Shown: one piece after another, positions 3,001 through 32,096 of the stretch | How positions within the stretch are numbered: the stretch's first letter is position 1 | Layout: every line of letters starts with the position of its first letter | Source of the DNA: a virus | IMG/VR virus record: IMGVR_UViG_3300033804_000029 | Span: 1,237 to 65,236 of that record | Reading direction: 5' to 3' (one strand) | Length of the DNA stretch: 64,000 bases | Notes under the pieces: generated by a model | What the model was told of the DNA's origin: nothing | The model's input: the letters and a program-made list of their open reading frames with translations, nothing else | The model's database searches: none | Translations under genes and position numbers: made by a program

Positions 3001-3947
3001 CCTCTTATCTCAAGGACGCCTATGGTCTGGTGAAGCATCCCGTCCGGGTAATCACCGCCAAGGAAGCCACTTTTATTCACGTCCTGGATGACTTTATCGC
3101 CAACAAAGACTATTGGGGGGAACAGATTTACGATCCCTACGGCTCCTGGCGGGAATTTGCCCAAAATATCGGGAAATATCTGGGCCGGCAGGCGACGCCG
3201 TTCATCGTCCAGACTTATCTGCGGGGAGCGGAGCAGACCCCGGGGCGGGCAGGTCTGAGCTTTATGGGAATCCGGCCGGTGCCCCGGGAGATCGCCAACA
3301 CCCCGGCGATGGGGGTCATGGATCATTATAACGAACTCATGCGGGCCTCCACCACCACCAAAGAAGGAGCTGAACTAAAACGCCTCAAGGCCGACCTGAT
3401 GAAGCTGGCCCGGGCCGGGGATGAGGCGGGGTTCCTGGACATGGCGAATACTGCCAGGGAGGAAGGCCGGATCACTCAGCGGCAGATTGAGGAAGTGGCC
3501 AAGGAGAGCCAGGAGCCCGCCGGCCTGTCCCGCTTCCGCCGACTGCCCCTGGAGTGGAAGCTGCGGACCCTGGCGGTGGCCTCTGATTTTGAGAAGGAGC
3601 AATGGCTGCCCTATTTCCTCAAATCAATCATCACCGAGTCTGAACAAAGGCCGGAAAATCTGGTGAAGAACCGGGAACTTCTGATGAACGCCCTGGACGC
3701 CCTGGGATTCCCGGAAAGCGCCGCGTTCGTGCAGGCGTTGGAGATTCCCGAGGAAGGCGGTCGGCGGCCTTTGGGAGAGTTGGGGATACCGCGGCCCGCC
3801 CCGGAAATTCCTGATTTGGAACGGGCGGATACGGAAGTGGCCCGGGCCATGGCGGCCAATCTGGCGAAGCTAACCGGGGAACCCCGACGGCGGAGAGGCC
3901 CCCTGCCCTCGCCGCCCCGGCACCGTTTGGAGTTTTTGGGCTTATAA
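3..3947 (+). CDS. Giant virion/DNA-ejection (polyvalent-like) protein, 5'-partial, with HExxH metallopeptidase-like motif
   Basis: >1297 aa; frame open to the window edge; Pro/Ala-rich linker, HELWH motif followed by 'EEVRARAY..IFQKIKDFF', helical C-terminal region; lies at the end of the structural operon. Confidence 0.6.
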   Translation, partial: PPGVSPLPPGAAAPGAGMVSKGLPAAAPAGRQNEIIRGALPPEPAPAPPRVPPAMPEPPAGAPALPGGQTVAVSPIPGEAERPRRGPLAPPPGAEQPMGTAGAGAARVVEAAEAAPAPPAPTLAPGEIAPPEPPGAAVESRPAPPGRLFSLEDEATLARGLTTADIRKRVGDFGTVSEIPAERLHGGNQRAWRIDTKGGQMIGVFESRDGSLEMRVGETLGPEYEELGMRPEAGRIRGAYRPMSFGGLVELARDVGPRTVDHELWHHIEQWLLTDKERAALARDFGPNEEVRARAYSEWSPKEAPNTIFQKIKDFFQRILKSITGYMSGEDVFAKARTGELFGREPRERVLEPERRFEVAGAEEERRPWDMVGGITGKVTGNLEQAQAHYRGVKDWLSAMFWPTRRTEEGRWTHEKIAGRQAETAKEQIRMNREFQQYIPQTNFADPRTIEFLRLYESPDFKPEDITDPTFKAFGEFYRAEERRQMANIHELGIDLNDLSNYIDHLWMSSEKLNQIKQALVSERGKSIQGPQYFRLLRTVSSIPAGIEAGLQPRYNSLAETVMAGRAAHESFIGAQRAIKDVKDAGRLKVVTSLDKAPEGWRKLPGAYGEVWTKVDRRAMQAIPEIADTETMPLGGGPERAGYEDIPALKGWMRVGYRVAPEDVVTQFENFASRGWSGKAPFEVYQNALFGVRHLQMALSAWHLTFEGINAMASRAWMGLADTVGGIFQGDVRRLGAGLGKLVTAPAALPLYIRKGLEFDRALMNPKYADPDVVDIANILAGGARVASETNLKNLLGGHLREAGEAFRAAQPFRAAGGLLRTASSGLMDFIVPQGKNGQIYNEYFREMERFTRQMGREATQEEARRIAYEVREHADNVWGAVARDNVNVGATARSLFSFWLQFPRFNIGSAKLLARDISGAKGVLRQAVQFARGMPVESLKIEDRLALQYTTGLLFSVGLMGGLMHWAFTGKPPEKMKDFYYPATGETLPNGAEERLQLPSYLKDAYGLVKHPVRVITAKEATFIHVLDDFIANKDYWGEQIYDPYGSWREFAQNIGKYLGRQATPFIVQTYLRGAEQTPGRAGLSFMGIRPVPREIANTPAMGVMDHYNELMRASTTTKEGAELKRLKADLMKLARAGDEAGFLDMANTAREEGRITQRQIEEVAKESQEPAGLSRFRRLPLEWKLRTLAVASDFEKEQWLPYFLKSIITESEQRPENLVKNRELLMNALDALGFPESAAFVQALEIPEEGGRRPLGELGIPRPAPEIPDLERADTEVARAMAANLAKLTGEPRRRRGPLPSPPRHRLEFLGL

Positions 3948-3980
3948 ATTTAAGAAATTTCACTGAAAAGGAGAACGGTC

Positions 3981-4439
3981 ATGGGCGGATGGTTGATTGA
4001 ACTCAGGGATAAAACCACTAATGTATGCGGGGATTTGCTGGCGGACCCCGGAGACTTTCTGGCCGCGGTCAATCCGGCTGGGCTTACCGGGATCACAAAT
4101 GGCTGGTGGCAGCATATTCCTTCCTGGGACAAGGTTGAATTGAGCCTGATCTGTTCGGCAGCCGCCACCTTCCTGGTCTGCGTCAGCGGGGTCAATCCGC
4201 AGTCCGACCCAAATGTGCCAGGAAATGCCCCGGACAATAATAACTGGGATGGCTACCCGCTGTTTTACGGGCAAAACACCGTGTTTTCGCCGGTGGCCAG
4301 CGTTGATCCGACGACTGGACAAATAGCCTTTTCCGCCGGTGGCGAAGTGGCCTTGCCCATCCGCATCCAGAACGCCTGGATAAAGGTCAAGGTCATCAGC
4401 AACAATGGGCGGGTTTCGGCACCGATAAGGGGAGTCTAA
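3981..4439 (+). CDS. Hypothetical virion protein
   Basis: 152 aa ORF, strong AAGGAG RBS, between ejection protein and tail fibres. Confidence 0.5.
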   Translation: MGGWLIELRDKTTNVCGDLLADPGDFLAAVNPAGLTGITNGWWQHIPSWDKVELSLICSAAATFLVCVSGVNPQSDPNVPGNAPDNNNWDGYPLFYGQNTVFSPVASVDPTTGQIAFSAGGEVALPIRIQNAWIKVKVISNNGRVSAPIRGV

Positions 4440-4451
4440 AGGAGAACGGTC

Positions 4452-6071
4452 ATGCTCACTTTTCCGCCGCCGGGGTACAATCCATTTGCGATTGGTCAAT
4501 TTAGTCTTGTCTATCCGGCCCCCTTGAAGGATGCCTATTTAATCAACGATTCCTTTCTGGATAGCCGCGCTCCGGGCACAGTCAACGGGACTCCGTTGAC
4601 TCCGGGGCCGGGACCAGGGGGACGTTTCAGCACCGATGTAACGCAACCGCCCCGGTGGACCGCAAATACTCCCGTGGCTTATGGGGCTTTTTGTCGAGAC
4701 GCGGCGGGAAATTATTATCAATGCGGGCAGGCCGGAATCACCGGTGTTTCCGAGCCTTCCTGGATCACCAGTATTGGCTGGCAAACTATAGATAATACCG
4801 TCCACTGGCGGCGATTTTGTAATCCCTATATTCTAAATCGCTGTCTGCGGGTTTATCCTACTTTTGCACAAAATATGAAAATTATTTGGTCGGAAATTCC
4901 TATTGCCAAAATTCCGGGTATATGGATGTTGGCGCAATTTTCATTTTATTATGGTGGTTGGCAATTGGGCCTTCACCTAAATTTAGCTGAATCAATTCCC
5001 TTTTTATATTTAGGAGGAGCAGATGACGGATATTTGGATGTGCCATTTAAGGATAGTTCTTTTGTGCCAGTTCTGACTGCTCCAGATAATTCCCAAGCCA
5101 TTCATTATCAAGTCGCCTTGGTTTGCCGCAAATTCGGTGGGTTATATTTCTGTAATAAAAATAGCGCCGGGTTGCGGTTGCTTTATACTACTACTTGGTC
5201 AAACGACCGTTACGGTCAAAGTCCGATTTTGCCTTTACTTAATTGGGGGAGTAGTTATGGCGATGACCGTTACGCTCAGATTGAAAACTATTTGCGGATG
5301 CCGACCCAATTCTGGCCTTTAACTATTGGGATAATCGCCGCAGATACTTTTGTGAGATCTAATGGCACTCTGGGCCTCACCGATGGGAAAGGCCACCAGT
5401 TAGCTTTGCTAGTTCCTAAAGACAATTCTGGAGATGACCCGCAAGCCGGTCAGGGCAACATGAATGAGGCCGTGGCCGGCAATGGCCTCCCCTGGACCAA
5501 CTTGGCGGGCACGGTCCAAATAGTCGGCAACACCGCCCAATCTACGGCCCTGAGTGGCGGGCGGGCGGTTTGCGTGGTGCCGGTGGGGACCAACAATGTT
5601 TTTATGACTATGGCTTTGGCGGCCCTCTCCACCGGCGGCGCAGGCTTAGTCTTTGATTGCGTGGACGCCAATAACTATTGGTACTGGTTCTTCGATGGCT
5701 CCAACCTGAAGTTGATTCAACGGGTTAACGGAGTGGACCAAGCTCCAGCTAGCACGGTTGCCGCGAGTTTCACCGCTAAGGAGGAAATGCGGCTGCGGTT
5801 GGATGGCACCAATTTCTGGTCCTGGTACAAGAATATCATGCGGGTAGCTGATCTGACCATCAGCAAAATCGGCGGCAATTACGCCGGACTGATTTTCTTC
5901 GACACCGGGACTCAGGTGAATGAGTTCGTCTGCCGGGCGACCGGCAATGAAGGACAATATAATTATATAAGCAATTTCAATCAAATAGATAATTCTTATT
6001 TATTAAATGAAGATGGATCATATATTCTGATGGAGGATGGATCATCTGAAATAGTATTAGAAACTTTCTAG
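4452..6071 (+). CDS. Tail fibre / receptor-binding protein with lectin-like domains
   Basis: WTANTPVAYG..YYQC..G.T..SEPSW..DNTVHW motif, beta-rich C-terminal domain, terminal LLNEDGSYILMEDG motif, AT-rich middle segment. Confidence 0.6.
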   Translation: MLTFPPPGYNPFAIGQFSLVYPAPLKDAYLINDSFLDSRAPGTVNGTPLTPGPGPGGRFSTDVTQPPRWTANTPVAYGAFCRDAAGNYYQCGQAGITGVSEPSWITSIGWQTIDNTVHWRRFCNPYILNRCLRVYPTFAQNMKIIWSEIPIAKIPGIWMLAQFSFYYGGWQLGLHLNLAESIPFLYLGGADDGYLDVPFKDSSFVPVLTAPDNSQAIHYQVALVCRKFGGLYFCNKNSAGLRLLYTTTWSNDRYGQSPILPLLNWGSSYGDDRYAQIENYLRMPTQFWPLTIGIIAADTFVRSNGTLGLTDGKGHQLALLVPKDNSGDDPQAGQGNMNEAVAGNGLPWTNLAGTVQIVGNTAQSTALSGGRAVCVVPVGTNNVFMTMALAALSTGGAGLVFDCVDANNYWYWFFDGSNLKLIQRVNGVDQAPASTVAASFTAKEEMRLRLDGTNFWSWYKNIMRVADLTISKIGGNYAGLIFFDTGTQVNEFVCRATGNEGQYNYISNFNQIDNSYLLNEDGSYILMEDGSSEIVLETF

Positions 6072-6073
6072 AG

Positions 6074-7087
6074 GTGGATAATATGACAAATTATAAGATT
6101 TCTCAACTTCAGGCAAAGACTATCCCTGTCGATGCTGATCTAACGATCATTGCAGATTCGGCGGGTCCGCCAAACAAGAGCCTTTCCTGGGCCAATCTCA
6201 AGGCGACCCTGAAAAGTTATTTCGATACGCTTTATCAGGCGATTTTGGGATTCACTCCAGAAAATGTGACGAATAAGTCAACAGACGGCACTCTGGGCGG
6301 TGCTTCGCCATCGGACACGAAATATCCTTCCCAAAAAGCGGCGAAAACCTATGCGGATGGTTTGGTTTTGCCCGGTTATATGAGCCGCTTAAAGGTTTAT
6401 AATGATTCCGGGAACCCGGCCAGCAAGATTGACATCACCGCGGACGCGATAATCATGGCCAGCGGTACTGCCTATAAACTGCTCACCGGAGTGAGCCTAG
6501 CGGTGGATTGCACCACTAATGGCGCCAACGGATTGGACACCGGCAGCCTGAGCAACGGCAACTGGTACTTTTTTTATGTGATTTATAACCCCACTACTGC
6601 GACCATCGCGGGACTGGCATCCTTGTCGGCGACCTCCCCAGCCCTGCCCAGCGGTTATACTTATAGCCGATTGGTGAGTGCTATTTATTACACTTCCAGC
6701 GCCTTCCGTAATGTGAAGCAGGCAGGCAACCGGGTCAATGTCACTACTGCAGGCATATCAATGTATGCTTGTAGCGTAAACTCATACACTTCTACAGACA
6801 TTTCCGCTTATGTACCAGCAAATGCTCTATCGGTTCAAATTCAGCCCACACATACAAACGCAACTCAAACCGCCATGATGCATGAAATAGCCTGGGATGC
6901 CAGCGGTACTAATAGAGTGCAATTTATCGTGGGAGCTCCGGGAGCTACCTTGGATGGAACTGAAGTTTCTCTTGGGGCGCAAACTTATCGTCTCAACCCG
7001 GCGGCGCCGCAGACCATCTATATCAAAGGCTATGATACCAACGACCGGGGCCATAGTTATCTGCTGGGGTATGAGTTGGATATCTAA
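6074..7087 (+). CDS. Tail fibre protein
   Basis: N-terminal KISQL..D.D; GANGLDTGSL..WY.Y.I; PALPSGYTYSRLV tail-fibre motifs. Confidence 0.7.
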   Translation: MDNMTNYKISQLQAKTIPVDADLTIIADSAGPPNKSLSWANLKATLKSYFDTLYQAILGFTPENVTNKSTDGTLGGASPSDTKYPSQKAAKTYADGLVLPGYMSRLKVYNDSGNPASKIDITADAIIMASGTAYKLLTGVSLAVDCTTNGANGLDTGSLSNGNWYFFYVIYNPTTATIAGLASLSATSPALPSGYTYSRLVSAIYYTSSAFRNVKQAGNRVNVTTAGISMYACSVNSYTSTDISAYVPANALSVQIQPTHTNATQTAMMHEIAWDASGTNRVQFIVGAPGATLDGTEVSLGAQTYRLNPAAPQTIYIKGYDTNDRGHSYLLGYELDI

Positions 7088-7099
7088 CGAGATTAAGTC

Positions 7100-7507
7100 A
7101 TGGACCTGGAATCAATCCTTAAGGGCACGAAGCTCTGTGATCATCTGAATTTCAACACTGTTCTCTTGGTGCTTGTCCTGATTTTTATCATCGGTCCCAA
7201 GCGCATAGCCGAGATTTTGAAACGCTGGGCCGGGAAGTCGGAAGTCAGCGTGACGATCCATGAGCCGAATCCGACACCACCTAGCACGACAGTCCTGGTT
7301 ACGGAAAAAGAGTGCGACGCCAAGCACAAAGCCATAGATAAAGATTTGGATGAAGGCAAAAAAGCTGACCAAAGAATCTGGGATTTTATCGGGCCAATGC
7401 AAACCGATGTAGTGGAGACAAAAACTACCGTGGGCCATATCAAGGAAGATGTGAGCTACATCAGAGGTCAGATCGAAAGAGCTCCTGGGCGCAAAAAAAC
7501 TTCTTGA
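7100..7507 (+). CDS. Single-TM membrane protein with coiled-coil tail (lysis-adjacent)
   Basis: Hydrophobic VLLVLVLIFII segment, directly upstream of the endolysin. Confidence 0.45.
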   Translation: MDLESILKGTKLCDHLNFNTVLLVLVLIFIIGPKRIAEILKRWAGKSEVSVTIHEPNPTPPSTTVLVTEKECDAKHKAIDKDLDEGKKADQRIWDFIGPMQTDVVETKTTVGHIKEDVSYIRGQIERAPGRKKTS

Positions 7508-7532
7508 CAGGTCTTTCCCCTTGATAGTATAA
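7504..7532 (+). promoter_or_regulatory. Sigma70-like promoter for the lysis cassette
   Basis: TTGACA-N17-TATAAG upstream of the GGAGG RBS of the endolysin. Confidence 0.55.
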
Positions 7533-7556
7533 GGCGGGGGAAAGGAGGGAGACAAG

Positions 7557-8024
7557 ATGCCCCAATCGCAGCCAGATTATGATCAATTAATGCTAAGAGT
7601 CCTGGCTACCATCAAGAGTTACGCTGGGGTTTCCGAACTGACCAATATGCAGCAGATCCTTGAGTGGATCGAGGAGGCGGACGGCAACACCCGGCGGGAG
7701 GCCTGGTGCAGCGATTTTATGATGGATATGCTCCGGGAGGCCGGAATCGACATCACCGGCGTCACCCCGGCGGCGGCAAGCTGGCTGGATTGGGGAGTGG
7801 ACATCGGCGACCAAGCGGTAGGCGGCTGCATCGCCGTCTTTCACTGGTCCAGCGGGCCGGATGAAGGCGGCCACCATGTTACTATGGTGGATGACAACCA
7901 GGATGGAGTCGCTGACGGCCTCATCGCCTGCTGGGGCGGGAACCAGGGCCGGGCGGTGAAACGGTGCCTGTTCTCTCTGAGCGATGTGCAGAGCTTCCGG
8001 ATGCCGGAAGGCTATCAGGTATAA
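7557..8024 (+). CDS. Endolysin, CHAP/NlpC-P60-like (TIGR02594-like)
   Basis: AWCSDFM..AAASWLDWG..GCIAVF..GHHVT..GGNQG motif set with Cys/His dyad. Confidence 0.8.
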   Translation: MPQSQPDYDQLMLRVLATIKSYAGVSELTNMQQILEWIEEADGNTRREAWCSDFMMDMLREAGIDITGVTPAAASWLDWGVDIGDQAVGGCIAVFHWSSGPDEGGHHVTMVDDNQDGVADGLIACWGGNQGRAVKRCLFSLSDVQSFRMPEGYQV

Positions 8025-8042
8025 AATTAATTCTTCTAACCG

Positions 8043-8354
8043 ATGAATTTCTGGCAAGAATTTCTCAAACTGGACAACAGCCAAGTCCATACGCCTTACG
8101 CCGCCATGGCCATTGCCTTTATTCTGGCGGCCCCGATCATCTGTCTGTCCTGCGCCGGGGTAATTTACCATGTTTTCTGGCTTCGCAAGGGTCTGGACGG
8201 CCCCACGGTGGAACTGTTGAAGGTGATGCTGGGAGCGGCGACCGGCGGGGTGATCGGCAGCGGGGCCACAATGTTCAGCCGTTATCCCGTTCTTGGAGAG
8301 AAAAGCAGACCGCCGGACCGGGATACTGAAATCATTAAGGGAGAGAACCCATGA
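8043..8354 (+). CDS. Putative holin (2 TM)
   Basis: Two hydrophobic segments and a charged C-terminus; follows the endolysin. Confidence 0.55.
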   Translation: MNFWQEFLKLDNSQVHTPYAAMAIAFILAAPIICLSCAGVIYHVFWLRKGLDGPTVELLKVMLGAATGGVIGSGATMFSRYPVLGEKSRPPDRDTEIIKGENP

Positions 8355-27438: not shown

Positions 27439-27819
27439 TTATACCTCAATTCCATTTCTGTCTGCTAGCTTCCGGGCGGTCTCCTCAAAACCGAACCAAG
27501 CTAAAAGGTTTTGATTTGAGGTATCCAAAGCTAAGGGGTCTTCTTTGTCCCAATCCCTGAAAAGCTGTTCAGGGCCATAGCCGGTGCCGTCAATTAATTC
27601 TTTGAGCAAAGAATTGATCTCTTGACGGTGTTTTTTGAAAAAGGCCAGGGTGTCTTTATAATATATCAAATGACCGACAAACCCGGATTGACAACCGCAG
27701 CGAAGAAGATCGTCTATAACTCCCGCCGCGCCATTTTCATAATCTGCTACTTCGCCGTTAATCCATTTCTGGACATGACGCTCAAGAAGGGTTTCAGCCC
27801 CTTTGATTTTAACTTTCAT
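27439..27819 (-). CDS. Conserved hypothetical early phage protein
   Basis: GCQSG.V..LIYY.DT..FF..H..EI; N.LAWFGFEE.A. Confidence 0.7.
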   Translation of the reverse strand: MKVKIKGAETLLERHVQKWINGEVADYENGAAGVIDDLLRCGCQSGFVGHLIYYKDTLAFFKKHRQEINSLLKELIDGTGYGPEQLFRDWDKEDPLALDTSNQNLLAWFGFEETARKLADRNGIEV

Positions 27820-28049
27820 TTCTCTACCCTCCTCGCCCATTTAACCTGCAACCATCATGCCAATGGCTAAGATTGAGGAAATAGTCAGATATAATCAATA
27901 GTTGCCATTTGCCTAAACTAAGCCATAGGTTAAAATAATTGAACCGATTTTGATCCGAAAATAGCCAATGGATTGAAAATGGTAATATAACCGATGGTTT
28001 AGACCGTGTTTCAAAATATTGCCAATGGTTAAAATTATTGGCCCCAGCC

Positions 28050-28078
28050 TTGACTAATCAAGAAACCTGTGCTATGAG
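28050..28078 (+). promoter_or_regulatory. Sigma70-like promoter for the original RuvC-like gene
   Basis: TTGACT-N17-TATGAG with extended TG. Confidence 0.45.
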
Positions 28079-28085
28079 GCAAAAT

Positions 28086-28223
28086 ATGGACCGCAAACTT
28101 TTCGGCGGTATCGACCCGGGCCAGTATGGGGGAATCGGCATCTTGGACCAGGCCGGCCAGTTTGTCGAGGCCCATAGATGGGATCTTAAGCGGCCAGCTG
28201 ATCTCTTCTCTATATTATTAAAA
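28086..28223 (+). pseudogene. Original 5' fragment of the RuvC-like resolvase gene, cut by IS1595
   Basis: MDRKLFGGIDPGQYGGIGIL; rejoins 30868 onward in frame when the IS and one TSD are removed. Confidence 0.85.
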
Positions 28224-28280
28224 GGCGATTATGCACTTCACAACGTACTTTTTGGCTTGCTTTTTTGTGTGATAATTGGT

Positions 28281-29282
28281 TTAGTCAGCATAACTATCCC
28301 ATATTTTTTCAAAACTCAATTTATCGATACCAATACTACGCATATCGGTAGGCATACCATTAGCATTTTTAATAAAAGAATCATCTTCTTGGGCGGGGGA
28401 TATTGGGGTAAAATCTTTTCTAGTCAACTGATAAGGCATTCCTGTTATATGAACGGTATTATCAAAAGTAGATTTATAGAGAACATATACAACAATCAGA
28501 AGAGTTTTAACGGATTCAATTTTCTGTCCTATATCTTTTTCAAAACTGGCAGGGGTGAAATTTGTAGAAATAGAATGCTCAATAGATGTTTCATTGGGAA
28601 AGAGATATCCAGTGATGTCCGCTTGCGAAGAGAAACCCATATCTCTGCTTTTTGCTTCCTCACATATGTTTCTAACTTTTTCGGGAATATACATATGGGG
28701 ATCAAAATCCATAAGGATTACTTCAACAGCAAATTTAACATCTGCGGCTGGAGTTGCACCGATGTTCTGAAATTGAAAACCAATATGAATACTAATCCCC
28801 CCGCCACTCATAAGGGTAATTGGAGCTACCCCGACAACCCTTGTATTTACAATTTTTATCCAGGGTCTTTGAGTGGAAGCCAATGTTTTATCAGCAACTT
28901 CCGCACTTTTTTTAGCTGCGTCGGCAGCTTTTTGCGCAACGTCAATAGATTCTTTCATGTGCCTGGAATGTTCTTGCGAAGTTTTATACAACGTATAAGT
29001 AAACAAAGCGATTACTATGGTAGCCAAAGCCATAACTACATCACTATAAATATCAATCCATTCAATGATACAATGAATTCCTTGTTTAGCATTAAGCAAA
29101 AGCGGCATGAAAAAAGGGAGAGATATTTCAGATCCAGAACCATAATTTTCTTGCTTGGTCTTATCTTGATTTATCTGATGTGGCGTCAGGGGCGGAGAAC
29201 AAAATGAGCCAATGGTTTCAATAGTTGCAATTATTACCAATACAAATAATATTTTATTTAATGATAGTTTATTATTTAGCAT
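28281..29282 (-). CDS. IS passenger: membrane-anchored hypothetical protein
   Basis: Two N-terminal hydrophobic segments, AQKAADAAKKSAEVA..QRPW, NIGATPA; AT-rich. Confidence 0.7.
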   Translation of the reverse strand: MLNNKLSLNKILFVLVIIATIETIGSFCSPPLTPHQINQDKTKQENYGSGSEISLPFFMPLLLNAKQGIHCIIEWIDIYSDVVMALATIVIALFTYTLYKTSQEHSRHMKESIDVAQKAADAAKKSAEVADKTLASTQRPWIKIVNTRVVGVAPITLMSGGGISIHIGFQFQNIGATPAADVKFAVEVILMDFDPHMYIPEKVRNICEEAKSRDMGFSSQADITGYLFPNETSIEHSISTNFTPASFEKDIGQKIESVKTLLIVVYVLYKSTFDNTVHITGMPYQLTRKDFTPISPAQEDDSFIKNANGMPTDMRSIGIDKLSFEKIWDSYAD

Positions 29283-29311
29283 AACCTTATTGCCACAAAG
29301 GAGACCAAAAA

Positions 29312-29530
29312 ATGAGCGATCAAGAGCAAAGCAAAAGGGAAATCCTTAAAGAGAAAGTGGTTTCTCTGGTTAAGGATTTTGTGAAAACTGAGGGCGGCAT
29401 AACTCAGGATGATTTACAAGTTTTGTTTGGGAATCCCAACGATCCCCGCAAAACAAAGGAATTTATGACCGACGGTGTGTCTGCCGCCCTTGGAGAATTA
29501 CCTATCTTCTTTAGTGAAGATTCCACCTAG
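29312..29530 (+). CDS. IS passenger: hypothetical protein
   Basis: AAGGAG RBS, 72 aa. Confidence 0.55.
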   Translation: MSDQEQSKREILKEKVVSLVKDFVKTEGGITQDDLQVLFGNPNDPRKTKEFMTDGVSAALGELPIFFSEDST

Positions 29531-29666
29531 CGATGTGCTTAATGGCGCATTCTGGGGTTTTTCCTTTCTCCATAAACCAAGCACAATCCGGATTACAGGT
29601 CGTGTCTTCGGGCTTTTTGGAGTTGGAACAGGCAACTTTTAAAGGACATTGTTTTTGTTCAAACAT
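29511..29666 (-). CDS. IS passenger: 51-aa Cys-rich protein
   Basis: AAGGAG RBS; KQCPL..C..C...CAWF...CAI. Confidence 0.5.
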   Translation of the reverse strand: MFEQKQCPLKVACSNSKKPEDTTCNPDCAWFMEKGKTPECAIKHIARWNLH

Positions 29667-29768
29667 GGCTTCTCACTCCTTTGTTTATGGTCATTCTCGC
29701 AAAATTACCATAACACAAAAACGGGTGAGAAGCCATGGGGTATTTAGTGGGGCAAGCATCCTTTGCCC

Positions 29769-30656
29769 TTAGAAACTCGTTTTTAGAACCTTATCCATCA
29801 TATTGAATTGTTTACGGTTGTTGAGCCGGAAAGAGAACTCGCTAAGGTAAAGGGGTAAATACTTGGCCGAAACCTTATGGAAAACGCCGGTGATGGCCCG
29901 CTTAAACAGAGACCAGACATTTTCGATCCCATTAGTATGGATATTCCCGGCCTTCACATAGGTTTTTGCTCCATGATTCACTGTATTATGGATAAACTCA
30001 GAGCTATCAAGCCAGAGATAAGACCGAAATTCATCGGTATGGATTTCAGCGCCAGGCATAGCGTGCTTGCGGATGAACACCCGCAAAGTACTGGCCTTGA
30101 CATTATCAACCGCTTTCATGAGGATTTTACCTGATGTCCGCTCTTTTATGGCGATTACGGGAATTTTATTGGCGGCTCCGCGCCCGCGTGGACCTCTGGC
30201 TTTGCCACCGATATAAGTCTCGTCAACTTCGCAGATACCGGCGAACTTCTGACAAAAATCCTCATCTTCCTGCATAGCCAGGCGGATGCGCTGGGCCATA
30301 TACCAGGCAGTGCGATAGCTTCCGATTGCCAGTTCTCTTTGAAGTTGGGTAGCAGGAACCCCTTTTTTAGCGGAGCAAATCAGATAGATTGCCAGAAACC
30401 ACTTAGTCAAAGGCAAATGAGAATCGTGAAAGACGGTGCCAGCAGTAATCGAGTATTGATAATGGCATTCTTTGCACTCGTAAAGGTGGCGAATTTTCTT
30501 GGTTTTCCCCAGGGTATTATATCGGAAGACTCTTTTGCTTCCGCACTTGATACAAGTCAAGCCGTCAGGCCAGCGAATGCGCTCAAAGTGCTCAATGCAC
30601 TTTTCCTCAGTGTCAAAACGCTTGATAACCTCAAAGATAGAAGGCTGTTTGTCCAT
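29769..30656 (-). CDS. IS1595-family (ISXO2-like) DDE transposase
   Basis: RWP.G..C.KCG Zn ribbon, GTVFHDSHLPL.KW, EVDETYIGG, HTDE, HTN.IE..WS.FKR, YL.EF.FR.N. Confidence 0.97.
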   Translation of the reverse strand: MDKQPSIFEVIKRFDTEEKCIEHFERIRWPDGLTCIKCGSKRVFRYNTLGKTKKIRHLYECKECHYQYSITAGTVFHDSHLPLTKWFLAIYLICSAKKGVPATQLQRELAIGSYRTAWYMAQRIRLAMQEDEDFCQKFAGICEVDETYIGGKARGPRGRGAANKIPVIAIKERTSGKILMKAVDNVKASTLRVFIRKHAMPGAEIHTDEFRSYLWLDSSEFIHNTVNHGAKTYVKAGNIHTNGIENVWSLFKRAITGVFHKVSAKYLPLYLSEFSFRLNNRKQFNMMDKVLKTSF

Positions 30657-31320
30657 GAGTGATTCTCCTGTTAAAAAGCTGTTTGCGGGAATTGATCCCG
30701 GTCAATTTGGCGGTTTGGGGATCGTAGATCAAGATGGTCAGTTTGTCGCCGCCTATCGCTGGGATATTCGAGAACCCCGTCGCCTATATCAGATATTGGA
30801 AACCTTATCTAAACCTAAAGATAGCACAGAAGAATCACGTTGTCAAGTGAATAATCGCCTATTAAAATATAGTGGTTTATTGGTTAAAGTTTATATCGAA
30901 GACGTGAATGTCTATCGGAAGCCGGAAGCTGGCATTGAGCTAAAACTAGGCGTCCCCGGCAATATGTTAATCAACTTCGGCATCTGGCAGGGCTGGCTCA
31001 TGGCCCTGGATATTGCCTATTCAGTTATCCCGATCAACACCTGGCAGGCTGCCCAAAAGCTCCTTTTCTGGAAAAAGAAAAAATCGAAAAATCCTGATCA
31101 CCATTCGCCCCTCAGCTTGGCCCGGGAGAAATGGCCTGAAGCATCACTTGAATTTAAAAGGGATGACGGAAAGGCCGCAGGTCTATTATTAGCAGACTGC
31201 GCCCGGAGGGACCACGAAAGGGGAATTGACCAAACCGCGGTCCGGCAGGTGAGAAAAGAAAAGGCGAAAAAGAAAAAGACTAACCAGAAACAGGCCCAGG
31301 CCCAAAGCATTTTATGGTAG
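30655..31320 (+). CDS. Reconstituted RuvC-like Holliday junction resolvase (IS-encoded N-terminus + phage C-terminus)
   Basis: AGIDPGQFGGLG, VYIE, NFGIWQG.L, P.TWQ, DDGKA.GLLLA; the frame runs through the IS TIR. Confidence 0.75.
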   Translation: MSDSPVKKLFAGIDPGQFGGLGIVDQDGQFVAAYRWDIREPRRLYQILETLSKPKDSTEESRCQVNNRLLKYSGLLVKVYIEDVNVYRKPEAGIELKLGVPGNMLINFGIWQGWLMALDIAYSVIPINTWQAAQKLLFWKKKKSKNPDHHSPLSLAREKWPEASLEFKRDDGKAAGLLLADCARRDHERGIDQTAVRQVRKEKAKKKKTNQKQAQAQSILW

Positions 31321-31331
31321 GAGACCTAGCC

Positions 31332-32096
31332 ATGTCACCTAAAAAATCCGACAGACCCGATCCCGGTGCCGATCCGCTAGCCGACCCGGCCCCCCGGCGC
31401 CGACCTGGCCGTCCCTACCGACAGGCCAAGCCCGCCACAGTGGCCTTACCAGAATCCATCGCCCGCCAAGACCTATATAATATATATAATATACTTAATA
31501 TGGATAAGATAAGTGGTGATAATCAAATATTAATTGATTGTAATATAGAAGCCATTATGAAAGAAGTAGATCAATGTCTTGAAAGAATTGGTGAAAAAGG
31601 CGTTTTATCTACCAAAGAGATGAAATTCCTCTATTTCTCCCTTACAGAAAAAATGCCTATTATGAAATCTTTAAAATTGTCAGGAATATTAGATGATTAT
31701 AAAAGAGAAATCCCTGAACGTACAGCTTATTGGATTGCAAAACAAATAGTGAAAAAATATGAAGCGCACGAGGCGGATCACAGAAAGATTTTTCGGGCAA
31801 TCGGGTTAGGTGAGGTTCGGACCGCGCTGGGTATCCTGGCCCTCTGTGATGATCCCGAAAGGCGATGGCAGGCCAAAGGATTAGAGCTTGCCTCTAAGAA
31901 TTTGGGCCTACAAAAAGAATATATCGAAGGAAGTCAAGGATTTACGGTTATTATCCAAGGCCCTGACGCTGCGGTACAGATTAACCAGGGCATAGCTGGG
32001 CAGCCGCCACTGCCTCATCAGGCACCACAAGATGTTGATACCTATCGCCATCCCAAGCCTGCGATCCCAGGCAAACCTATTAAAATCATTGACTAA
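31332..32096 (+). CDS. Hypothetical protein, possible terminase small subunit
   Basis: RRPGRP N-terminus, helical core, low-complexity tail; start of the rightward late arm (positional inference). Confidence 0.4.
   Translation: MSPKKSDRPDPGADPLADPAPRRRPGRPYRQAKPATVALPESIARQDLYNIYNILNMDKISGDNQILIDCNIEAIMKEVDQCLERIGEKGVLSTKEMKFLYFSLTEKMPIMKSLKLSGILDDYKREIPERTAYWIAKQIVKKYEAHEADHRKIFRAIGLGEVRTALGILALCDDPERRWQAKGLELASKNLGLQKEYIEGSQGFTVIIQGPDAAVQINQGIAGQPPLPHQAPQDVDTYRHPKPAIPGKPIKIID

Follow-up and report, generated by a model that had tools for sequence, protein, structure and literature searches.

The 64,000-nucleotide stretch of viral DNA analysed here (the window) is nearly the whole of IMG/VR virus record IMGVR_UViG_3300033804_000029, which is 65,236 bp long and rated 96% complete. 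Within it, an insertion sequence (IS) of the IS1595 family has split a gene for a RuvC-like Holliday junction resolvase. The IS itself carries a second, diverged 5′ end of such a gene, and from this an open reading frame (ORF) runs out through the end of the element into the displaced 3′ part. This is a real and probably new kind of self-repairing insertion by an element with a DDE transposase. On balance, we favour the reading that the spare 5′ end borne by the IS rebuilds the resolvase gene upon insertion.

The interrupted gene and its rebuilt reading frame

The native 5′ end of the resolvase gene, 46 codons at 28086..28223 on the + strand, has been orphaned by the insertion. It has its own ribosome binding site (RBS; GAGG, 6 nt upstream), can be aligned to the N-terminal ends of 24 family members and retains all 12 of the positions that are at least 90% conserved. 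The native 3′ part (30868..31320, + strand; 150 codons) holds the invariant residues E82, D170 and D171, numbered here as in the chimera described below. An earlier note on this DNA had claimed that a RuvC-like gene was split after codon 46 and that taking out the IS would restore its frame. This proved correct: removal of the IS with one copy of its target site duplication (TSD) leaves a single open frame over the joint and a gene of 196 codons, a length that fits the phage homologues of ~200 aa. The resolvase family comprises 15 database homologues and an intact 198-aa gene in a related phage contig of 69 kb (L003).

What now reads into the 3′ part is a chimeric resolvase ORF of 221 aa (30655..31320, + strand). 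Its codons 1-48 are the IS-borne 5′ resolvase segment (30655..30798, + strand), which lies antisense in the transposase leader and whose ATG overlaps the transposase start in one CATG. A linker of 21 codons follows (E49-L69; 30799..30861, + strand), encoded by the −10 and −35 of the transposase promoter, the terminal inverted repeat (TIR) and the first bases of the TSD. The frame then continues into the native L-L-K-Y-S-G, of which L-L-K is encoded by the right copy of the TSD (30860..30867) and the last base of the TIR. The earlier note had described just such a passage through transposase promoter and TIR into the 3′ half, with the copy supplying the first catalytic Asp, and the 21-codon joint and the position of that residue (D14) agree with it. 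The four acidic residues D14, E82, D170 and D171, whose catalytic roles we presume from RuvC, do not vary in any of the 15 aligned sequences, and D14 lies in the IS-borne part. The linker is an insert that is absent from all 16 homologues.

The chimera matches the ‘Holliday junction resolvase’ family phrog_1770 at 6.5e-12 over residues 8-188. It has no Pfam family at E ≤ 0.1 besides chance-level hits, and no match among 50,697 deposited phage records. An AlphaFold2 model from 15 sequences reached a mean predicted local distance difference test score (pLDDT) of 86.7 and a predicted template modelling score (pTM) of 0.82, with the N-terminal residues 11-50 at a pLDDT of 93-97. In the model, strands at 9-14, 19-25 and 30-35 are followed by a helix at 42-52 and a strand at 76-83, and the linker forms a loop (pLDDT 67-74) between that helix and the last strand. 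The top 11 Foldseek matches of the model are MOC1 resolvases (E 2e-6 to 2e-5), after which come bacterial RuvC proteins. These predictions give the chimera the fold of a RuvC/MOC1-like resolvase, RNase H-like and of the RuvC type, with the linker accommodated as a loop.

The inserted element and the soundness of the assembly

The element occupies 28224..30859 (− strand; 2,636 bp) and has a G+C content of 41.5%, compared with 52.4% for the phage. The TIR at its transposase-distal end (28224..28246) has the end sequence GGCGATTATGCACTTCACAACGT, and the reverse complement of the TIR at the transposase-promoter end (30837..30859) matches GGCGATTATGCACTTCACAACGT at 21 of 23 positions. The TSD is the 8-bp TATTAAAA, whose left copy (28216..28223) was read from the sequence and whose right copy is identical to it at 8/8 positions; the ends, inverted repeats and duplication proposed in the earlier note are all borne out. 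The DDE transposase of 295 aa (29769..30656, − strand) matches the Pfam families DDE_Tnp_IS1595 (PF12762; E = 9.9e-40, profile positions 3-153 of 153) and, at its N-terminus, Zn_ribbon_IS1595 (PF12760; E = 1.5e-12). It has 4,826 homologues at E ≤ 0.001, the nearest at 79-83% identity. A promoter-like site for the transposase, TTGACA-17-TATCTT with a TG (30818..30846, − strand), has its −35 within the TIR, and the same TIR/−10 layout is present in relatives of the IS. With its DDE domain, zinc ribbon, TIRs and 8-bp TSD, the element is a member of the IS1595 family by every feature tested. No tyrosine or serine recombinase and no att core was found in it; the DDE transposase is its sole recombinase and its joints consist of TIR and TSD. 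The intact transposase ORF and a 93.6%-identical copy elsewhere are indirect, sequence-level signs that the element may transpose.

IS elements are repeats and a frequent source of misjoins, and relatives of this one occur in the same peat runs, so an assembler might in principle have joined it into the phage contig. However, both joints lie inside one gene, the 8-bp duplication is perfect, and the frame is restored when the IS is removed. Moreover, an independent Logan assembly of the probable source run contains a circular contig of 65,146 bp with the same sequence and the same arrangement at an even depth of 14.6. A second sample yielded identical pieces of the IS and both flanks, including 28207-28363 over the left joint (with only 17 nt on the phage side). 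An assembly chimera can for practical purposes be discounted. No empty-site joint was found among the contigs of the four runs searched.

Inheritance of the spare 5′ end

Transposase relatives were fetched at 80 genome loci, and the 300 nt upstream of the transposase were read in the 27 closest (L007-L033). The segment is present in three of these: L007 and L008, on contigs of 2.2 and 1.7 Mb from one deltaproteobacterial metagenome-assembled genome (MAG), and L012, from a Desulfobaccales MAG. Relatives with a short leader fit the TIR (with the TTGACA −35 inside it), −10, RBS and ATG into 61-125 nt and have no segment. The three carriers have the same TIR/−10 and RBS/ATG with ~140 extra nt between them, which encode the resolvase N-terminus on the opposite strand. 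A metagenome scan with the carrier peptides gave four further carriers (L089-L092), and an all-against-library HMMER search gave two more as short proteins (P0137 and P0138). Together with the window element there are 10 distinct copies, from MAGs of Thermodesulfobacteriota and from metagenome contigs; DNA context is available for eight. L089 is the copy whose DNA is 93.6% identical to the window element; it sits at a different site, and its flank recurs in a further peat run.

Each carrier’s ORF begins at the CATG that it has in common with the transposase start. Because L090 still retains the original ‘MDRKLF’ start a few codons into its ORF, the captured piece can be taken to have begun slightly 5′ of the start codon and to have extended to about codon 48. 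The segment is a heritable part of an IS sub-lineage and not a local repair. The earlier note had raised the idea that the stretch between TIR and transposase start in related copies would encode the N-terminus of whatever gene they had entered. This holds in part: nine further copies carry a homologue of the resolvase N-terminus there, but none of the nine sits in a resolvase gene.

In a transposase tree of 21 rows, the eight carriers fall into one unresolved group of 10 rows together with two non-carriers, a topology compatible with a single origin of the carriers. The tree covers 21 of 33 loci (the window element, WIN; L007-L034; L089-L092), which were taken with a motif-based ORF picker, L089 being added by hand; it omits L016, L020-L023, L026, L028-L031, L033 and L034.

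Element ends were delimited at 13 other loci, and 12 of these copies have a matching 8-bp TSD. The remaining copy, L009:3936-6303, has mismatched flanks (TTAAATTT vs AAAAATTA), which suggests recombination between two copies. The non-carrier L010 has a 125-nt leader (L010:3876-4000) with a different insert, a hairpin of ~60 nt, at the spot of the carriers’ segment between −10 and RBS. This leader position seems to accept foreign DNA.

Age of the insertion

The orphaned and the spare N-terminus are identical at 27 of 41 residues, and 19 of these 27 are encoded by different codons, exactly the figures that the earlier note had given for a second N-terminus inside the IS. Their nucleotide identity is 74/123; synonymous sites are saturated and the codon bias of the two copies is opposite. 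Synonymous divergence (dS) of the window segment is 0.62-1.34 from six of the seven other carriers with DNA context and 0.20 from L089. The insertion is recent and the segment is older than it, because the TSD copies agree at 8/8 positions and the orphan is undecayed (RBS, start and 12/12 conserved positions), yet dS between the window segment and most other carriers is large.

As an alternative, the earlier note had allowed for a one-off repair, in which an ordinary insertion was followed by recombination with a related phage that placed a foreign N-terminus in the IS, in this phage only. N-termini that differ mostly at synonymous sites are indeed what a foreign donor would leave. However, the same segment occupies the same leader position in nine other copies elsewhere, including those on the chromosomal contigs of 1.7 and 2.2 Mb, and L089, nearly identical in its DNA, stands at a different site. 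We reject this alternative as very improbable, unless all of the carriers derive from the window phage.

Such descent would make the window locus the original capture insertion and the other carriers its offspring. The end of the segment lies within 2-3 codons of the insertion site, and the tree is compatible with the single origin that this account entails. Nevertheless, the window copy is nested as the sister of L089 (transposase identity 96%, at another site) and is not basal. The identical TSD copies, the orphan end with its start, RBS and 12 invariant residues intact, the dS from six of the seven other carriers, and the saturated synonymous sites with their opposite codon bias also speak against an origin at this locus, which we consider improbable.

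Selection on the segment

The ratio of non-synonymous to synonymous substitution rates (dN/dS), which the earlier note had named as a measure for the fragment, is 0-0.45 in all 28 pairs of the eight carriers, with an excess of third-position changes, the values being drawn from a core of 40 codons and from related, non-independent pairs. Synonymous changes outnumber non-synonymous ones by 16 to 6 between L007 and L008, by 8 to 1 between L008 and L012, and by 5 to 0 between the window element and L089. Coding on the opposite strand cannot explain the constraint, since the transposase ORF does not overlap the segment. All 12 family-invariant positions (at least 90% in 24 full-length members), including the Asp of GIDPG, are unchanged in the 10 carriers, and variation among the carriers, seen at 23 positions, falls outside these 12 (hypergeometric p = 1.4e-5). 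By these comparisons the segment is under purifying selection, and it changes in the way expected of an N-terminus that still serves a functional resolvase.

The target site

Without the IS, the window holds 604 all-A/T 8-mers. Thirteen are in the resolvase gene, 10 of them in the 17-nt A/T run at the insertion site. Under random AT-targeted insertion, the 604 8-mers and the choice of orientation give a chance of ~1 in 1,200 for the given site and orientation. The TSDs of all delimited relatives are likewise AT-rich 8-mers with no fixed sequence. A/T runs also occur in the same helix-1/strand-4 segment of the homologues in L003 and in prophage L132 (13 and 17 nt).

A second IS1595-family hit came from the 83 genomes of the class to which the L007 MAG belongs. 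It lies in a prophage homologue of the resolvase (G056 contig 42; L152:492-1470), ~10 codons downstream of the site equivalent to that in the window. This element is 979 bp long, belongs to another sub-family with another TIR, has no passengers and is flanked by an AT-rich duplication; its Pfam domains were confirmed. It lies on the coding strand of the gene, without a spare part, and both a frameshift and a TAG are found in the gene’s 3′ part. The helix-1/strand-4 region is a recurrent IS target, and the unrepaired hit accompanies a dead gene. The transposase ORF of this smaller element is itself broken: near AAAATGG (L152:1155-1170) the frame shifts by one base, which separates zinc ribbon from DDE domain and is either a mutation or a programmed frameshift. 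Protein P0149 of the resolvase family (140 aa) ends in ‘...KKIWNL’ at the same helix-1 position as the insertion site in the window; it could be another interrupted gene, or a contig end.

Proposed mechanism and main rival

We propose that the 5′ end of a phage gene for a RuvC-family Holliday junction resolvase was captured by an IS1595 sub-lineage that resides in Thermodesulfobacteriota of peat and wetlands, presumably at an earlier hit in the same hot spot. The piece would have begun a few bases before the start codon, ended at about codon 48 and come to lie on the opposite strand of the leader, between −10 and RBS. From the shared CATG, a stop-less ORF would read outward through the promoter and the TIR. 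The element inserts in AT-rich 8-mers as its relatives do, and in this family the helix-1/strand-4 segment holds the long A/T run of the resolvase gene. Later hits there in the same orientation would rebuild the gene, and such insertions would be the ones that a phage survives. In the window, the element has landed in the A/T run in the productive orientation and frame, joined to the gene by the 21 codons that promoter, TIR and TSD encode. This leaves the native 5′ end orphaned, and the phage retains a full-length chimeric resolvase frame that has all of the conserved acidic residues and would be expressed and active. The IS could then ride in an insertion-intolerant phage genome at little cost, and repeated, episodic passage through phages would maintain selection on the spare part, also in the chromosomal copies. 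We prefer capture at a hot spot because the chance of such a landing is ~1 in 1,200 and only eight carriers with context are at hand. The full account, in which a DDE IS lineage with an evolved spare part inserts in the resolvase hot spot, rebuilds the gene and uses phages as vehicles between hosts, seems to us about evenly poised.

The earlier note had called the IS target-adapted. The inherited, selected segment and the predicted fold agree with that description, but resolvase-specific targeting does not, as one of the 10 copies is in a resolvase gene. Adaptation to the target, with the preference and the adaptive value that it implies, is something we infer from improbable geometry and the pattern of selection, not from repeated observation.

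Several points weigh against self-repair. The nine carriers outside resolvase genes comprise seven of the eight with DNA context and both of the protein-only copies; the AT-rich sites of the seven are unrelated, and most lie between genes or in a different frame. The two host MAGs with three carriers show no full-length family resolvase with this query, and the ORF is still conserved in these chromosomal copies that have no partner gene. A second phage or prophage with the fusion was not found in IMG/VR or in 83 class-level and 401 phylum-level genomes. No other fusion was among the 16 hits of a search of 5.8 billion proteins or the 36 hits from 1.84 billion representatives, where the protein library was clustered at 50% and fusions could hide within clusters. 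For the chimera, no promoter stands out above chance (8 promoter-like sites vs 8.0 ± 3.2 expected). The frame through the TIR is open in seven of the eight carriers, and the segment ORF has no stop of its own there, but this TIR leaves two of its three frames open regardless, and an open frame argues only weakly for design. The short, non-independent basis of the dN/dS values belongs here too, and the reading supplies no mechanism for placing a 5′ gene piece between −10 and RBS.

Much of this also favours the main rival, a peptide with a function of its own. Here, a small protein domesticated from the resolvase N-terminus would regulate transposition or interfere with phage resolvases, and the in-frame landing would be a by-product of the A/T hot spot and of the survival of the only viable insertion. 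Beyond the TIR, the copies outside resolvase genes run on for an arbitrary 2 to ~120 codons, and their dN/dS is still low. Such a peptide would explain the chromosomal conservation, in host MAGs where three copies have no partner gene, more simply than self-repair does, and the IS family inserts in AT-rich 8-mers in general. However, ~48 residues (three strands and one helix) make up a third of an RNase H-like fold and would not be expected to keep all of the invariants, the GIDPG Asp among them. Moreover, seven of the eight copies have no stop codon of their own, and a landing in the cognate gene at precisely this site, in this orientation and frame, comes to ~1 in 1,200 by site count. We regard an independently functional peptide as possible, if rather unlikely, and retain self-repair as the preferred reading.

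Other searches concerned the distribution of the element in viruses. Among 24 viral contigs with the TIR pattern, 11 had transposase matches at 31-43% identity and none had the resolvase segment. Scans of IMG/VR for the transposase gave eight loci when based on an alignment, all at 32-36% identity, and none with a single sequence. The flanks of L090 and L091 were considered as resolvase remnants and rejected, as tblastn with the chimera past the TIR gave only scattered identities. The viral contigs L107 and L127, which have a distant IS1595 relative with a 329-nt leader and an ORF resembling a terminase small subunit, were rejected as a second example, as that ORF lies outside the IS.

Relation to known mobile elements

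Members of the IS1595 family have terminal inverted repeats and generate an 8-bp target duplication; the family, including its passenger genes, was reportedly described by Siguier, Gagnevin and Chandler in 2009. The window element resembles members with passengers in its DDE_Tnp_IS1595 and zinc-ribbon transposase, TIRs of ~23 bp, AT-rich 8-bp TSD and variable passengers. It is unlike the usual IS1595 element in that its leader holds an antisense, selected fragment of the target gene that reads out through the TIR. Full-text literature searches turned up no report of a DDE IS that brings a substitute for a gene end.

Group I introns, inteins and IStrons are self-removing elements that reside in phage genes. 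Like them, the window IS is a mobile element in an important phage gene that would not lose its function. Unlike them, it would not be spliced at the level of RNA or protein; its end would stay as a loop in the protein, and the native 5′ end is discarded. Pack-MULEs are eukaryotic DNA transposons that capture gene fragments; like the window IS, they are of the cut-and-paste type and enclose part of a cellular or viral gene within their TIRs. The fragment in the window differs in that it is purifying-selected as an enzyme N-terminus and positioned for fusion with its cognate target.

If self-repair is true, a cut-and-paste element would have a new way to live in a compact genome, by having its own end translated as a linker and supplying the displaced start. 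It would be the DDE-transposon counterpart of the gene-end replacement that integrases bring about at att sites. Gene-fragment capture by a prokaryotic IS could then be adaptive for the element, a transposase leader could be overprinted with a protein-coding segment, and a RuvC-type resolvase would tolerate 21 additional residues between its helix 1 and strand 4.

Integrase-based prophages and islands replace the end of the gene that they enter, as do e14 at the 3′ end of icd and Rac at the 5′ end of ttcA (PMC6379469). The likeness is that a diverged version of the lost gene end travels with the element, the target stays functional (as the chimera would) and the displaced end remains as a pseudo-fragment. 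Elements of the e14/Rac type use a site-specific recombinase and have the att site inside the duplicated segment, whereas the window IS has a DDE transposase and a TSD, makes no homology-based choice of site and joins by translating 21 codons of promoter and TIR. Phages are reported to tolerate IS elements poorly and rarely to shuttle them (PMC3429520).

Passenger genes and neighbouring features

Apart from its transposase, the window element contains a passenger gene for a membrane-protein-like product of 333 aa (28281..29282, − strand), which has no family match but has a homologue in L007, and a passenger ORF of 72 aa (29312..29530, + strand), also with no family match. PADLOC, run on the passenger proteins of the window and of the relatives, gave nothing beyond one weak hit for L007. 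The frame of the orphaned 5′ end stays open for ~330 codons further into the IS (28038-29207, + strand), antisense to the 333-aa gene, and L007 has a comparable antisense frame of 299 aa from its far TIR. These open antisense frames may merely reflect the codon usage of the passenger gene. Passengers of related IS1595 copies vary (L008:5450-6367, L012:5742-6623, L014:3144-4064 and L015:5171-6022), with Pfam matches to DUF3800 in three copies and a weak HEPN-like match in one. In L033 (IS at 3922-8197), the transposase is shortened to 254 aa and two additional ORFs, of 504 and 243 aa, lie inside the IS.

An Rfam scan of 27800-31500 on both strands (4,227 families) found no ribozyme; it returned two chance-level hits to microRNA models (E 0.13 and 0.34). 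These fall on a hairpin at 29663-29738, just 3′ of the transposase stop, which is formed by a 19-bp inverted repeat with 89% complementarity and which also matches itself on the opposite strand in a search of its own genome.

On the phage side, the gene 3′ of the resolvase gene (31314-32096) is syntenic in the related phage (L003:4559-5263). Its start codon in the window overlaps the stop codon of the resolvase gene (ATGGTAG), an arrangement that suggests translational coupling of the two genes. Just upstream of the resolvase gene, the intergenic stretch 27922-28040, between divergent genes of families D1 and D2, contains three motifs resembling GCCAATGG...TTAAAAT(A/T)ATTG, which are possible operator sites.

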